DNA of 64,000 bases, from NCBI RefSeq assembly GCF_050320075.1, contig NZ_CP190018.1, one strand, 5' to 3'. The notes under the pieces were generated by a model. The model saw nothing but the letters and a program-made list of their open reading frames with translations, did no database searches and was not told the origin of the DNA. Below, piece by piece: positions 3,973 to 27,477 of this stretch. Each line of letters begins with the position of its first letter. Within the stretch, counting starts at the first letter, position 1. Made by a program: the position numbers and the translations under genes. Origin of the DNA: Escherichia coli (lineage in GTDB: Bacteria > Pseudomonadota > Gammaproteobacteria > Enterobacterales > Enterobacteriaceae).

Positions 3973-3988
3973 TGTGATATCAGTCACA
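3973..3988. promoter_or_regulatory. CRP site (TGTGA-N6-TCACA) upstream of mtlA
   Basis: Perfect half-sites tgtgatatcagtcaca; the mtl promoter is known to be CRP-dependent with multiple sites. Confidence 0.7.
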
Positions 3989-4015
3989 TAAATATAGGGG
4001 GTAGAGAGGTAATTG

Positions 4016-4033
4016 ACGTGATGCTCATCACAA
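4016..4033. promoter_or_regulatory. CRP-like site in mtlA/yibI divergent region
   Basis: cgtgatgctcatcacaaa, near-consensus. Confidence 0.45.
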
Positions 4034-4089
4034 AACTCTTGTGTAAAAAAGCAACAAGGCGGCGATTTTCGCTAAAAATGGCATTTAAA

Positions 4090-4105
4090 TGTGAGTGATG
4101 TCACA
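4090..4105. promoter_or_regulatory. CRP site in mtlA/yibI divergent region
   Basis: tgtgagtgatgtcaca, perfect half-sites. Confidence 0.65.
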
Positions 4106-4133
4106 TTTTTATTTTGATGGTTTGTTGAATCTT

Positions 4134-4149
4134 TGTGATCTGAATCACA
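4134..4149. promoter_or_regulatory. CRP site in mtlA/yibI divergent region
   Basis: tgtgatctgaatcaca, perfect half-sites. Confidence 0.65.
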
Positions 4150-23054: not shown

Positions 23055-25025
23055 CTACGGATGGCAATGCTTTTCCTCATTCACCCAGATCCGCATTTCG
23101 CCTTCACCCCGGTTGGCCCAGCTAAACCACGGGATAAACGTCAGAATTTGCGGCTGGCGTTTGGCTGGCGCGCTGTCGTAATGCCACAGCGGTTGCTGCT
23201 CTGGATTGCTCTGTTCATACCGGTAACCCGGTGCCTGGATTAAGATCTTATGGCTGAACAATCCCTTACCTTCAAATGTCGTAAATGGCGCATCGGCGGG
23301 CAGCCACAGGTTATGCAGTGACTCGCCGTTGTCGGCCTGTTCCAGGCAATACACCAGCGGGCCGCGCTGAATCGCCACTTTTCCGGCGACGTGACGCACC
23401 AGAGGGTTACCGTAAACGCGGCGTACCGGCATCGGCAAAGTCAGATTCAGCGTATCGCCCTCCTGCCATTCGCGGGTAATGTGCAAATACCCTTTACGAA
23501 TATCCTGCTCGACCTCTTCCCCATTCAATATGATCTGCGGCTGTGTGCACCAGTCCGGCAGACGTAAAGCCAGCGTATGACGCACCGGCTGGGGCGATTC
23601 AACCGCAATTGTCACCTGTTCCTGCCACGGATAGTTCCCGCTAACCCGCAGGCGCAACGTGCCATTTTCTACCGGCACTTCCATGCTGTTTCCTGCGTAG
23701 ATGTTGATATACAACGCATCTTCACGCGGTGTGTAGAGATAATGACCAATCGAGGTCAGCACGCGGGCGATATTTGGCGGACAACAAGCGCAGCCAAACC
23801 AACGCTGGCGGATCGGTTTAACGTGATCGTAGATATGGTTGAATTTCAGCGATTTTGGATGTACTTCCAGCGGATTCACATAGAAGAAATGTTTGCCATC
23901 CAGTGCCATGCCGCCGAGCACAGTGTTGTACAGTGCGCGCTCCATCACATCGGCATATTGACTGTCGCCTTCCATTTCCAGCATTCGTCGGGCGAACATC
24001 ATCAGGCCGATGGAAGCACAACTTTCGGCGTAAACCGTGTCATTCGGCAGATCGTAATCGCTGCTAAACGCTTCGCCGCTGCTTTGTGAGCCAATGCCGC
24101 CGGTAATATATAACTGACGCTGGGCCATATTGTTCCACAGCCGCAGGCAATCCTGACGCTTGCTTTCATCGTGACTTAAACGCGCCAGATGTGCGACGCC
24201 AGTCATCAGGTAGACAAAGCGTACTGCATGTCCGATGGCGGTTTGTTGCTGTGCGATGGGCAAATGCGCCTGGCTGTAGGCTTTATCTTTCACCATCCAC
24301 GCCGGGCCGTAGGTGTGCCAGTGCGAGGTCTGCCCGCGCTTTTCATATTCCTGGTCGTAATAGTGCGGTTGCGCACCACGCTGTTCGACAAAATAGTTCG
24401 TCAGCGCCAGGTAGCGCGGCTCTTCGGTCACTTCATACAGGCGCATTAGTGCCAGTTCAATTTCCGGGTGACCAGGATAACCGTGTAACTTACTTTCACC
24501 TGGACCAAATACGCTGTCGATATGATCGGCCAGACGGCAAACCACTTCCAGCAAGCGCCGCTTGCCCGTGGCCTGGAAGAAGGCGACTCCGGCTTCAATC
24601 AGATGACCGGCGCAGTAAAGTTCATGACACTCCGCCAGATTGCTCCAGCGTTCTTCGGGCGCTTTTACCGTAAAGTAAGTATTGAGATAGCCATCTTCGC
24701 ACTGGGCGGAGGCGATCAGTTCAATCACCTCGTCAGCAGTTTTTTCCAGTTCGGCATCCGGCTTCTGGCACAGCGACCAGGCTACCGCTTCCAGCCATTT
24801 GGCGACGTCGCTGTCCTGAAACACCATCCCGTAAAATTCACCGTCTTGCAGTCCTGCGGCAATGCGAAAGTTTTCAATCGCATGGCTGGGTTCCGCTTCT
24901 GGGATACGATCGTTCAAGGCGTCCCACTGATAAGGAATCACCACATCGCGGACCAGTTGTTGGTACTGACCGAGGAACGGATCGCTGACCGTCAGTTTAT
25001 GCAGATCGACTTCCGAAATGTTCAT
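23055..25025 (-). CDS. Glycoside hydrolase family 127 (DUF1680; beta-L-arabinofuranosidase-like), about 656 aa
   Basis: ORF track 23055..25073 trimmed to ATG at 25025 with aaggag RBS (MNISEVDLHKL...); motifs YAESCASIG and WFGCACCPPN match the GH127 Zn/Cys site as I recall it from HypBA1. Confidence 0.8.
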   Translation of the reverse strand: MNISEVDLHKLTVSDPFLGQYQQLVRDVVIPYQWDALNDRIPEAEPSHAIENFRIAAGLQDGEFYGMVFQDSDVAKWLEAVAWSLCQKPDAELEKTADEVIELIASAQCEDGYLNTYFTVKAPEERWSNLAECHELYCAGHLIEAGVAFFQATGKRRLLEVVCRLADHIDSVFGPGESKLHGYPGHPEIELALMRLYEVTEEPRYLALTNYFVEQRGAQPHYYDQEYEKRGQTSHWHTYGPAWMVKDKAYSQAHLPIAQQQTAIGHAVRFVYLMTGVAHLARLSHDESKRQDCLRLWNNMAQRQLYITGGIGSQSSGEAFSSDYDLPNDTVYAESCASIGLMMFARRMLEMEGDSQYADVMERALYNTVLGGMALDGKHFFYVNPLEVHPKSLKFNHIYDHVKPIRQRWFGCACCPPNIARVLTSIGHYLYTPREDALYINIYAGNSMEVPVENGTLRLRVSGNYPWQEQVTIAVESPQPVRHTLALRLPDWCTQPQIILNGEEVEQDIRKGYLHITREWQEGDTLNLTLPMPVRRVYGNPLVRHVAGKVAIQRGPLVYCLEQADNGESLHNLWLPADAPFTTFEGKGLFSHKILIQAPGYRYEQSNPEQQPLWHYDSAPAKRQPQILTFIPWFSWANRGEGEMRIWVNEEKHCHP

Positions 25026-25035
25026 CTTGTGCTCC

Positions 25036-26436
25036 TTAAGGCTGTACATGACGCTGACGCAGGTCGCTAGCAATGCGTGACATCATAGGGTTATTGAGTT
25101 TGCAAAAGCGGATCGCCATCGCCAGCAGCAGGTGGAATAGCGCAGGCAGCAATGTTTCCATTGCTGTGATCCCGCCAAGCGAACTGGCGGTCTGGTTTTC
25201 CACGCCTGGCTGGTAGGCGACAAAAATAAACAGCAGGCTGATGATCCCGGCGCTGGAGGCCCAGGCCAGCTTGATGAAAAACAGATTGAAGGCGAAGTTC
25301 ATGCCGGAAGAACGTACGCGGGTTTTCCACTCGCCGTAGTCATCGGCAAAGGCCATCAATGAGAAGTGCAGTGGCAATGTGAAGCCAAGAATCACGCCAT
25401 TACCGAGGATCACCGCCAGCCACAGCGTTTGATAAGCCGGGCCAGAGGGCAGGAACCACATCAACACCGCCAGCGCAGCGAGGAGCAGGTTGGTGTAGTA
25501 GTAAATTTTGACGGTATCGAAACGCCGCGTTAATGGGCTGACAATCACCGAGCCGATAATGGAGGCGAAGGTGACCATGGTGAAGAACAGCGACGTGTAG
25601 CCCGTACTGCCTTGTAAGACGTAGGTAATGAAGTACATATACCCACCGCCGCGAATGTTAAAGACGTTAATCAGCAGGAAAGACATGACCAGCATCAGCA
25701 GTAGTTGGTCGTTGTTTCGCAGCCCGGCAAGATGTTCGCGCAGGGTAAATTTCCCCATTGTGGAGAGTGGCACCCGTTCACGAACCCAGAAGAAACAGCA
25801 CAGGAACATCACCACGGCAATGGCGCACAATACGCCGACGCCCAGTTGATAGCCGCGCGCGGCATTACCCTGACCGAAGAGATCTACCATCCACGGTAAG
25901 CCTACCGAAACCAGAAATCCCGCCACGCCGCAGAGAACGAATCGCCAGGACTGGCAGGAGATCACTTCATTGTGGCGGGTGGTCATGGTGTTGATCAGCG
26001 CGCAGTACGGCACGTTGATGGCGGTATAACCGACTGAAAGGAGCAGGTAAGTGCCGAACGCCCAGGCGATTTTTACTCCCATGCTGGCATCTGGCACGGT
26101 GAACGTCAGGATGCCGATAATGCCGATGGGAATGGCAATCCACAACTGCCACGGACGAAAGCGCCCCCAGCGACTTTGCGTCCGGTCGGCAATGACGCCC
26201 ATCACCGGGTCGGAGATGGCATCAAACACGCGCAGTGCAATAAACAGCGTGCCGACCAGCGCCGGAGTTAAGCCAAAAACGTCGGTGTAGAAAAAGGTGA
26301 GAAAGTTCATGATCAGGCAAGTTATTACGGTGCCGCCTGCGTCACCCAGGCCGTAGCCTATTTTTTCCCGTACAGATAACGCATCGTCAATTTTACCTTT
26401 AGCGATATCAGCGGTAGTAATCGGTGTAGAGGTCAT
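25036..26436 (-). CDS. GPH-family (MFS) glycoside-pentoside-hexuronide:cation symporter (466 aa)
   Basis: 12-TM-like hydrophobicity, N-terminal motif GYGLGDAGG, conserved D/R pattern typical of MelB/GusB-type symporters; 10 nt upstream of the GH127 start (operon). Confidence 0.8.
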
Positions 26437-26661
26437 AGATATTCCTCGTGAATAGGGAGCAATTTTTAGTTTTATTGCAATGACCTGATTAATTCTGCCG
26501 TGAACGGGAATATCAACAAGGCGAGAAAAGAGTAAAAAAAGGTGACGATTCCGACCTGAATTTAAAAGTGTGAAATGGATCAGGTGAAATTAATGTTTTT
26601 GATTAATAATCAAAAGGTAATGTGTTTAATCATTAATGAATAAGCGGGAAATTACATATCA

Positions 26662-27477
26662 ATGCTCGAATTATCCATGACGTTACCGATTAAAGTGCAA
26701 AATGGTGGATTATTTATTTCCCGTGGCGTAGGGAGGCATCCGGCAAGGCGGCTGGAGTCATGGGAAATTATCTTTGTCGAAAAAGGTCGATTAGCGATTC
26801 AGGAAGAAGAGCGGATATTTCTGGTCGATGCGGGAGAGAGTTTATTACTCTGGCCGAACCGACAGCATGTTGGGGTAGAGGATTTTCCCGCCGATCTCAA
26901 ATTTTACTGGCTGCATTTTGAGGTTAAAGCGCCGGATAGCGACCCGCGCTGGCTCACTCATCTTAGCGTGCCGCAACAAACGAAGGTTGCCGATCCGCAG
27001 GCGCTGGTGGCCCTGTTTCGCCAGTTCTTAAGCGAACAGGAAAAGCATCAACGCACTCCGGCGCTGGAGTTTATTGTGCTGCTGATTTTGCAGCAGCTCA
27101 CCCGTGACGCGCGTCTTGATGAACAGGCCGATGCCGCAGGTACCACGCTTGCCTGGAAAGCGCAGAAACTGATCCGCACGCAATATCATCGCCCGCTTTC
27201 TACGGCGCTTTTAGCCCGCGAGCTGTACTGCAATGCCGATTATCTTGGGCGTGTCTATCGGCGGGTGTTTCATCTGACGTTAACAGAAGCAATTCATCGC
27301 CAGCGAGTGCGCGAAGCCGAAAAGCTGTTAATTAGCGAAGCGCGATCGCTCACTGAAGTGGCGGCGTTGTGCGGGTTTAATGACGTTGGCTATTTCCGGC
27401 AGATTTTTCGCAAACACACCGGTTTAACGCCAGCTGCGTGGAAGCGACGTTACAGCAAGGAACATATCAATTCGTAG
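26662..27477 (+). CDS. AraC/XylS-family transcriptional regulator (271 aa)
   Basis: N-terminal cupin-like sugar-binding region; C-terminal dual HTH (...EVAALCGFNDVGYFRQIFRKHTGLTPAAWKRR); divergent from the transporter-GH127 operon. Confidence 0.82.
   Translation: MLELSMTLPIKVQNGGLFISRGVGRHPARRLESWEIIFVEKGRLAIQEEERIFLVDAGESLLLWPNRQHVGVEDFPADLKFYWLHFEVKAPDSDPRWLTHLSVPQQTKVADPQALVALFRQFLSEQEKHQRTPALEFIVLLILQQLTRDARLDEQADAAGTTLAWKAQKLIRTQYHRPLSTALLARELYCNADYLGRVYRRVFHLTLTEAIHRQRVREAEKLLISEARSLTEVAALCGFNDVGYFRQIFRKHTGLTPAAWKRRYSKEHINS

Follow-up and report, generated by a model that had tools for sequence, protein, structure and literature searches.

A divergent, probably AraC- and CRP-type control region between a glycoside symporter–GH127 operon and its regulator gene in Escherichia coli

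Introduction

Which sequences in the 225-bp spacer between a glycoside symporter gene and a divergent AraC-family regulator gene of Escherichia coli could control the two flanking transcription units? The spacer (26437–26661) is located in a 64-kb window, by which we mean the whole stretch of DNA that was analysed. The window belongs to the E. coli chromosome and shows 100% identity with many complete genomes. The three genes concerned form a cassette placed between sgbE (araD-like according to the source record) and yiaT:

23055–25025 (RefSeq start), minus strand: GH127 glycoside hydrolase gene with GH127 catalytic, middle and C-terminal domains (RefSeq annotation)
25036–26436, minus strand: GPH-family MFS glycoside:cation symporter gene (RefSeq annotation; Pfam MFS_2, 1.5e-73; TIGR00792 gph, 333 bits, over the cut-off)
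26662–27477, plus strand: divergent AraC-family regulator gene, encoding a cupin ligand-binding domain and two HTH motifs

The symporter gene is the first gene of the regulated operon and is followed by the GH127 gene, for which the open reading frame listing extends to a TTG at 25073 as compared with the RefSeq start at 25025. The GH127 family comprises beta-L-arabinofuranosidases; the closest NCBIfam model to the protein encoded here is an aceric acid hydrolase, with a score well under the cut-off of that model. According to this gene content a glycoside would be imported by the symporter and then hydrolysed by the GH127 enzyme in the cytoplasm. The best NCBIfam match of the regulator is AraC, with 61 bits and thus under the equivalog cut-off of 208 bits, and the protein can be aligned with K-12 AraC over its full length at 23% identity.

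The spacer is present in 2321–2322 of 5426 complete E. coli genomes (~43%), always as a single copy and always on the chromosome. Among the carriers are O157:H7 and strains of the B/BL21 lineage. K-12 MG1655 does not have the cassette: a 4.0-kb deletion, corresponding to approximately 23353–27373 of the window, has left of the regulator and GH127 genes only 3’ remnants, which are annotated as the pseudogenes ysaC and ysaD. This deletion explains the absence of curated regulatory data, and our literature search found no paper on the cassette locus or on its transcription start, footprint or expression.

A first-pass annotation made from the sequence had regarded the spacer as a divergent regulatory region, two palindromes therein as candidate operators of the AraC-type regulator and a CRP-like half-site region as a candidate site of catabolite control. 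The first of these assignments is borne out by the gene layout together with the conserved blocks described below. The CRP-like sequence also found support, the palindromes did not.

Results

Conserved blocks with rigid spacing

Orthologous loci were identified by scanning one genome per species, yielding 79 loci across the Enterobacteriaceae and Erwiniaceae (Enterobacterales). The regulator / symporter–GH127 arrangement was retained with a usable spacer of 215–383 bp in 73 of the 79, which together with E. coli make up a set of 74 species. The genera represented include Citrobacter, Salmonella (S. diarizonae), Enterobacter, Klebsiella, Raoultella and Kluyvera as well as Lelliottia, Leclercia, Buttiauxella, Cedecea, Pantoea and Mixta. 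Across these loci the regulator protein is 62–93% identical, a divergence at which non-functional spacer positions are saturated and their information content is close to zero. Amid this saturated sequence we found a module of ~125 bp (26484–26613) with five invariant or near-invariant blocks, and a sixth, weaker block directly before the ATG of the regulator gene:

26492–26498: block 1, ATTCTGC
26514–26521: block 2, CAACAAGG
26526–26559: block 3, AAAAGTA(t)AAAAAG-r-TGACGATTCCGACCTGA
26565–26581: block 4, AAA-n-TGTGA-N4-GATC
26603–26613: block 5, T-n-AATAATCA-A
26641–26659, plus strand: block 6, AAGCGGGAA...ATAT, conserved more weakly

The spacing within the module is rigid. In practically every species the blocks follow one another at distances of 22, 35, 20 and 36 bp, the last one being 35 bp in five, and insertions, deletions and all length variation are confined to the sequence outside the module. 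Within Escherichia the few SNPs avoid the conserved blocks and are located in the spacer of the predicted operon promoter, in the centre and the right half of the TGTGA box, in the 5’-UTRs and in the second of the two palindromes. Block 6 is probably the ribosome-binding region of the regulator gene and may have an operator role. The base composition of the spacer differs from its surroundings, with 32% GC compared with 51% for the whole window, and decreases to 25% GC in the part from 26560 to 26661.

A predicted weak promoter of the symporter–GH127 operon

Blocks 1 and 2 contain a pair of hexamers facing the symporter gene:

26514–26519, minus strand: predicted −35 of the symporter–GH127 promoter, TTGTTG in 64/74 species and TTG in 74/74
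26492–26497, minus strand: predicted −10 of the same promoter, CAGAAT (51 species) or CAAAAT (20 species)

The −10 takes the form CAnAAT, with A2 and T6 retained, in 72/74 species, and the 16 bp between the hexamers are constant in length and variable in sequence. The pair of hexamers, a spacer within the range of 16–18 bp and the retained A2 and T6 are the features of a sigma-70 promoter, and we infer that TTGTTG-16-CAGAAT is a weak promoter of this type which serves the operon. It agrees with the consensus at 7/12 positions, the same number as pBAD. Such a match is expected for activator-dependent promoters and explains why a stringent promoter scan detected no site with at least 9/12 consensus positions; the scan gave no terminator match either. 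The transcript would start at approximately 26485, and its 5’-UTR of ~49 nt would have a good Shine-Dalgarno sequence (GAGGAA) at its end. No Rfam covariance model matched the region 26200–26900 at an E-value of 1 or below.

Among the entries listed in the supplements of a Cappable-seq study of EDL933 (PMC10469882) there is a transcription start for yiaT at 4,580,696 and none for any of the three genes of the cassette or within the interval 4,576,1xx–4,576,5xx. These entries hint weakly that the cassette promoters were silent under the conditions of that study.

A candidate site for the regulator next to the predicted −35

The best-conserved part of the spacer lies immediately upstream of the predicted operon promoter:

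26522–26560, minus strand: near-invariant block of 39 bp whose ATTCCGAC core is invariant, reading ...AAAAGAGTAAAAAAAGG TGACGATTCCGACCTGA on the plus strand

The block spans approximately −37 to −75 of the predicted symporter promoter and its sequence is unique in the window. Position, length and conservation would fit an AraC-type operator, for which ~38–40 bp abutting or overlapping the −35 are expected, and by analogy with the position of araI1–I2 we infer that it is the best candidate site for the cassette’s AraC-family regulator. An internal repeat, such as the two related half-sites of these operators would give, did not reach significance here: in profile dot-plots for direct and inverted repeats nothing in the block or in the module exceeded the column-permutation null. 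The best internal repeat of the block is a direct one spaced by 21 bp, with a score of 10.6 (null 9.0 ± 1.0, maximum 11.3).

The search with an AraC-family motif that the first-pass annotation had suggested showed no enrichment, as the half-site pattern TAGC-N7-TCCATA was found 373 times in the window with up to three mismatches versus 395 expected. Its sole match with two mismatches in the spacer (26642–26658) is at chance level, though it falls within a conserved block, and was rejected. Likewise, the similarity of TGACGATTCCGACCTGA to araI2 (12/17 positions) was regarded as a coincidence, given proteins of 23% identity and the opposite orientation of the sequence.

The TGTGA box, a probable CRP site

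Between the 39-bp block and the regulator gene the spacer contains the CRP-like sequence that had been described as a half-site region (GTGTGAAATGGATCAGGTGA, 26568–26587):

26566–26587: CRP-like 22-mer with the core TGTGA-aatgga-TCAgg (TGTGAaatggaTCAgg, 26569–26584) and its centre at 26576.5
26565–26581: conserved footprint of the box, AAAnTGTGA-N4-GATC, 17 bp

The sequence is present as described. We scored it solely by counting mismatches to the core TGTGA-N6-TCACA; TGTGAaatggaTCAgg has a perfect TGTGA and two mismatches in total. Such matches occur 37 times in the window, with 25.5 ± 5.2 expected, so that the box is not significant by itself and gains its significance from conservation only. 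As a positive control, the genuine multi-site CRP region at mtlA (3973–4149), also located in the window, contains matches with 0–1 mismatches. TGTGA is found in all 74 orthologous spacers and GATC in 73/74. Judged by this alignment the box is under strong purifying selection. The right half is less well preserved: TCAGG agrees with the CRP consensus at 3/5 positions in E. coli and at 2/5 in most species, and it is unconserved beyond the TC. In consequence the number of core mismatches is one in 2 species, two in 18 and three in 54.

Support for a CRP site comes from the geometry. Between the centre of the box and the predicted −10 of the symporter operon (upstream edge) there are 79.5 bp, which is the same distance as in K-12 araBAD, where, with the established assignment of the ara elements, the centre of the CRP core lies 79.5 bp from the pBAD −10 with araI1–I2 in between. 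With respect to the predicted transcription starts the centre would be at about −91.5 for the operon and at about −40.5 for the regulator gene. Productive CRP positions are approximately −41.5 for class II promoters and −61.5, −72.5, −82.5 and −92.5 for class I promoters. Catabolite control by CRP, as originally proposed, is thus favoured by a conserved TGTGA at an araBAD-like distance and weakened by the poor right half, and may be regarded as plausible on this footing.

In Buttiauxella and Cedecea the −10 segment on the regulator side has been replaced and the TGTGA box has been retained, which ties the box mainly to the operon side. A −10-like TACACT in this clade is more distant from the box by 19 bp, which would place the box at about −59.5, a non-ideal class I distance.

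The flanking AAA and the GA in front of the TC are conserved more strictly than the known preferences of CRP require, and a different protein could therefore bind the TGTGA box. One candidate is the cassette regulator, for which AAAnTGTGA-N4-GATC would be a distal half-site comparable to araI1/araO, leaving CRP without a direct role. The length of the box (17 bp) is that of an AraC-type half-site, and its conservation is asymmetric, the left half and the GATC being invariant and the would-be CRP positions 17–19 free to vary. The three core mismatches in 54/74 species and the persistence of the box in the clade with a replaced regulator-proximal promoter can be read in the same direction. However, a TGTGA followed at exactly N6 by TC and accompanied by an A-rich flank is a CRP signature, the right half of the bona fide CRP site of ara is equally poor (GCAAA), the distance from box to −10 is identical to that in araBAD, and no second copy of the motif is found in the other conserved blocks. 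We therefore regard a regulator half-site in place of a CRP site as unlikely, though credible enough to be kept in mind.

The position of the box also bears on the choice of the operon promoter. The operon might instead be transcribed from a TATACT on the minus strand (26536 to 26531) with a start at approximately 26524. The ATTCCGAC block would then be a repressor-type site in the promoter spacer, and CAACAAGG and ATTCTGC would be elements of the 5’-UTR. TATACT matches the −10 consensus at 5/6 positions and is present in 61/74 species, but its second position, which is essential in a −10, is not constant (A, 61 species; T, 7; G, 4; C, 1), E. coli itself having TTTACT. In addition, TCAGGT, located 17 bp upstream of it, bears no likeness to a −35, and the CRP-like box would come to lie at −52.5, a non-functional position. 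Since a conserved TTG, a spacer of constant length (16 bp) and variable sequence and CAnAAT together are the hallmark of a real promoter, transcription from TATACT appears improbable, and we proceed with TTGTTG-16-CAGAAT as the predicted promoter of the operon.

Palindromes and the predicted promoter of the regulator gene

The part of the spacer next to the regulator gene contains the two palindromes to which an operator function had been attributed:

26597–26615: palindrome 1, a perfect 9-1-9 inverted repeat, TTTTGATTA-A-TAATCAAAA
26605–26610, plus strand: AATAAT, predicted −10 of the regulator promoter, located within both the conserved TTAATAATCAA and palindrome 1
26630–26639: palindrome 2, TCATTAATGA, 5+5 bp

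The 7-1-7 inverted repeat that had been reported at about 26600–26614 (TTGATTAATAATCAA) does exist, 1 bp away at 26599–26613, and is the inner part of palindrome 1. When the spacer was shuffled 5000 times with its dinucleotides preserved, arms of at least 9 bp arose in 0.7% of cases (P ~0.007). Five perfect palindromes of this size are found in the window, of which palindrome 1 is the only AT-rich one, the other four being GC-rich hairpins. It is invariant within Escherichia.

Across species the symmetry is not maintained. At the homologous centre the arms measure at least 7 bp in 10/74 species and 4 bp or less in 62/74; arms of at least 6 bp recur in several non-sister genera, and the form seen here is confined to the lineages of Escherichia and Enterobacter. 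The right arm is part of the conserved T-n-AATAATCA element. In the left arm ~20% of species share the G at 26601 and ~50% share the A at 26602. The family consensus TT-c-a-TTAATAATCAA holds a palindromic core of 3–4 bp, from which two substitutions lead to the E. coli palindrome. On this comparison palindrome 1 is a conserved −10-like element joined to a lineage-specific, non-conserved left arm.

AATAAT is present in 62/74 species, in register in 59 and shifted by 1 bp in three, and the rare variants GATAAT and GATATT retain A2 and T6. TTAATAATCAA is best read as bearing the −10 of the regulator promoter, for which a start at approximately 26617 is predicted. The T-n-AATAATCA element is conserved over 10–11 positions, which exceeds the need of a −10 hexamer, and a non-palindromic protein site, for instance an autoregulatory one, may overlap the −10.

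Palindrome 2 is likewise present at 26630–26639, but its proposed role as an operator did not hold. Arms of at least 5 bp occur in 72% of the spacer shuffles, which places it at chance level, and the information content at its position in the 74 spacers is about zero. It is broken even in E. coli Combat11I9 (TCATTGATGA), in E. whittamii and in Escherichia sp. E1V33. By its sequence and lack of conservation palindrome 2 has arisen by chance in AT-rich DNA.

A 23-nt direct repeat (26591–26613 / 26618–26640; 18/23 matches, P ~0.01) was also observed in this region. It was rejected as a functional element, as its second copy lies in non-conserved sequence and has already decayed in E. whittamii.

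Could palindrome 1, and perhaps palindrome 2, nevertheless be operators of a dimeric AraC-type regulator, for instance for autorepression? Palindrome 1 is statistically unusual and invariant within Escherichia, it overlaps the predicted −10 of the regulator promoter, the classic place for an autorepressor, and the conserved T-n-AATAATCA exceeds the length of a hexamer. On the other hand, dimers of the AraC family such as AraC, RhaS and MelR recognise two half-sites of ~17 bp each, unlike a 9-1-9 palindrome of the hairpin type, and the monomers contact ~17 bp rather than 9-bp arms separated by a 1-bp gap. Neither palindrome is composed of two direct or inverted ~17-bp repeats that each span two major grooves, and neither adjoins the −35 of the operon, where such sites usually lie, palindrome 1 sitting on the −10 of the regulator promoter. 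In the 74 species neither is conserved alongside the regulator: the arms of palindrome 1 are reduced to 4 bp or less in 62 of them despite a regulator of 62–93% identity, palindrome 2 is wholly non-conserved, and the best-conserved block is found elsewhere (26522–26560). As the palindromes are not conserved as palindromes, neither behaves as an operator co-evolving with the regulator. With symmetry in 10/74 species only and a right arm that coincides with the −10-like element, the operator assignment of palindrome 1 could not be upheld. We conclude that the two palindromes are probably not operators, and rate the dimeric operator as highly improbable.

The chance that palindrome 1 is instead a lineage-specific site through which another dimeric or global factor (FNR or another member of the CRP family, Fur, ArgR, H-NS or Fis) acts on the conserved promoter in Escherichia and Enterobacter appears extremely slim: its half-sites TTGAT and ATCAA are exactly those of FNR, the surrounding segment is AT-rich as preferred by H-NS and the longer arms recur in several non-sister genera, but the FNR half-sites are separated by N5 instead of the required N4, so that the FNR pattern is not matched even with one mismatch, the left half-site is not conserved, inspection against the consensus Fur and ArgR boxes found a single fitting NATWAT hexamer and an odd instead of an even symmetry, and a symmetry that two substitutions from the consensus suffice to create is not conserved. 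AT-rich palindromes in promoter regions can arise as by-products of −10-like sequence.

Discussion

On balance we favour the view that the spacer is a divergent, ara-like and probably CRP-assisted control region of a three-gene accessory cassette in which the palindromes are not working parts. This model joins predicted promoters, transcription starts and pairings of proteins with blocks to the observed sequences, conservation, spacing and geometry. The inducer-bound regulator would occupy the ATTCCGAC block beside the weak −35 and recruit RNA polymerase, thereby switching the operon on. CRP-cAMP at the TGTGA-N6-TCnnn box would assist the operon from about −91.5 and thus bring it under catabolite control. 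The same CRP molecule may drive the regulator promoter from about −40.5 in a class II-like manner.

The closest parallel is araC-araBAD. Both systems consist of a regulator gene and a divergent catabolic operon with a weak promoter that needs an activator; in both a conserved block of ~40 bp abuts the −35, and the −10 (upstream edge) is separated by 79.5 bp from the centre of a TGTGA box whose right half is degenerate. The alignment of the cassette regulator with AraC over its full length adds to the resemblance. In contrast, the proteins share 23% identity and the regulator reaches 61 of the 208 bits of the AraC equivalog. The block shows no recognisable direct repeat of 21 bp as in I1/I2, and its likeness to araI2 (12/17) is in the reversed orientation. 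The spacer is shorter, with 225 bp instead of ~340 bp, and no distal site similar to O2 was seen in it. Furthermore, the box would also lie at about −40.5 of the regulator promoter, unlike the situation at the araC promoter.

Similarities extend to rhaSR-rhaBAD and melR-melAB, in which a sugar-specific activator of the AraC family is located at approximately −35 to −80 with CRP upstream or in between; in the rhaBAD type of logic the activator sits beside the −35 and CRP helps from about −92.5. The inverted 17-bp half-sites of RhaS/RhaR, which are 16 bp apart, and the four 18-bp sites of MelR are both patterns that are not recognisable here. The control region therefore looks like a member of the functional class of araC-araBAD, rhaSR-rhaBAD and melR-melAB, by analogy of layout, and not like the ara system itself.

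A more far-reaching reading combines several of the elements. The 17-bp box and the ATTCCGAC block would together form the operator code of the AraC-family regulator, acting alone or via a Dam-sensitive GATC, and would switch on the uptake and hydrolysis of plant glycosides of the beta-L-arabinofuranoside type, with the 9-1-9 palindrome as an added, Escherichia-specific layer on the regulator promoter. We consider this combination distinctly unlikely. If true, it would describe a pathway that has been lost by K-12 and is active in pathogenic and commensal E. coli, strains of O157:H7 and B among them.

In the favoured model of an AraC- and CRP-type control region the spacer is a standard example of its kind and conceptually ordinary. 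The cassette is, however, carried by ~43% of complete E. coli genomes and by many Enterobacterales, and its regulation, owing to its absence from K-12, has never been catalogued. The footprint provides testable positions for both predicted promoters, for the likely regulator site and for the likely CRP site. It would speed the identification of the inducer and substrate of this unstudied GH127 system, for which growth on plant cell-wall glycans is perhaps relevant.

Repeats and conserved sequence in the divergent spacer

The 225-bp spacer between the symporter gene and the gene of the AraC-family regulator contains a direct repeat of 23 nt, followed by a conserved block:

26591-26613, first copy of the direct repeat, TAATGTTTTTGATTAATAATCAA
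26618-26640, second copy of the direct repeat, TAATGTGTTTAATCATTAATGAA
26641-26659, conserved block AAGCGGGAA...ATAT, immediately 5' of the regulator ATG

The two copies match at 18 of 23 positions with a spacing of 27 bp, which is unusual when compared to shuffled sequences (P ~0.01). The second copy is located in non-conserved sequence and is already decayed in E. whittamii. Possibly the repeat arose by chance. The conserved block includes a GGGA, the distance of which to the regulator start codon (12-13 nt) is long for a Shine-Dalgarno sequence. When the AraC half-site pattern TAGC-N7-TCCATA was compared to this block we found two mismatches, corresponding to chance level.

As a positive control for the appearance of strong CRP sites we used the mtlA-yibI spacer in the same window (3973-4149). 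Here, three perfect CRP cores (TGTGA-N6-TCACA) and one core with a single mismatch are clustered; this is the multi-CRP mtlA promoter.

Variation of the spacer among orthologs

Length variation of the orthologous spacers is located exclusively at the inverted-repeat region 5' of the symporter or beside the regulator start. An extra GC-rich inverted repeat (e.g. CCCGCTGAAGTGCGGG), absent from E. coli, was observed in Klebsiella, Raoultella and the Citrobacter freundii group (loci L041-L057, L073 and similar). It is situated within the predicted symporter 5'-UTR, approximately 60-90 bp 5' of the ATG.

We further distinguished a clade with a replaced segment (loci L044, L058, L061, L062, L064-L067, L071 and L075), comprising Buttiauxella, Cedecea, Atlantibacter and one genome labelled C. 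freundii. Conserved blocks 1-4 (predicted operon -10 and -35, candidate regulator site, TGTGA box) are retained in this clade, the TTAATAATCAA segment is exchanged for unrelated, GC-richer sequence, and a -10-like CTACACT is present, at a distance from the TGTGA box that is increased by about 19 bp. Most regulator genes of the clade apparently start with TTG or GTG.

Loss of most of the cassette in E. coli K-12 and of part of it in ETEC4071

In K-12 MG1655 a 4.0-kb deletion corresponding to window 23353-27373 (K-12 locus L087:6814-7110) has removed the entire spacer and the symporter as well as most of the regulator and GH127 genes. The 3' ends of the latter two persist as the annotated pseudogenes ysaC and ysaD, which are 96% and 91% identical to the window sequence, respectively. 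In E. coli ETEC4071 (locus L086, 2288-3127) the stretch from yiaT through GH127 and the symporter, together with the first 98 bp of the spacer on the left, has given way to an IS1 element and neighbouring selA-selB sequence. The control region of the remaining regulator gene is thereby reduced to its right-hand part, starting at window position ~26535.

The GH127 gene and its product

The longest GH127 ORF begins with a TTG at window position 25073 and shares 38 bp with the 3' end of the symporter gene; the RefSeq start is at 25025, 10 bp past the symporter stop. For the encoded protein (window 23055-25025) the top NCBIfam match is aceric acid hydrolase, with 457 bits against a cut-off of 950, and because of this match its substrate may be something other than a simple beta-L-arabinofuranoside.
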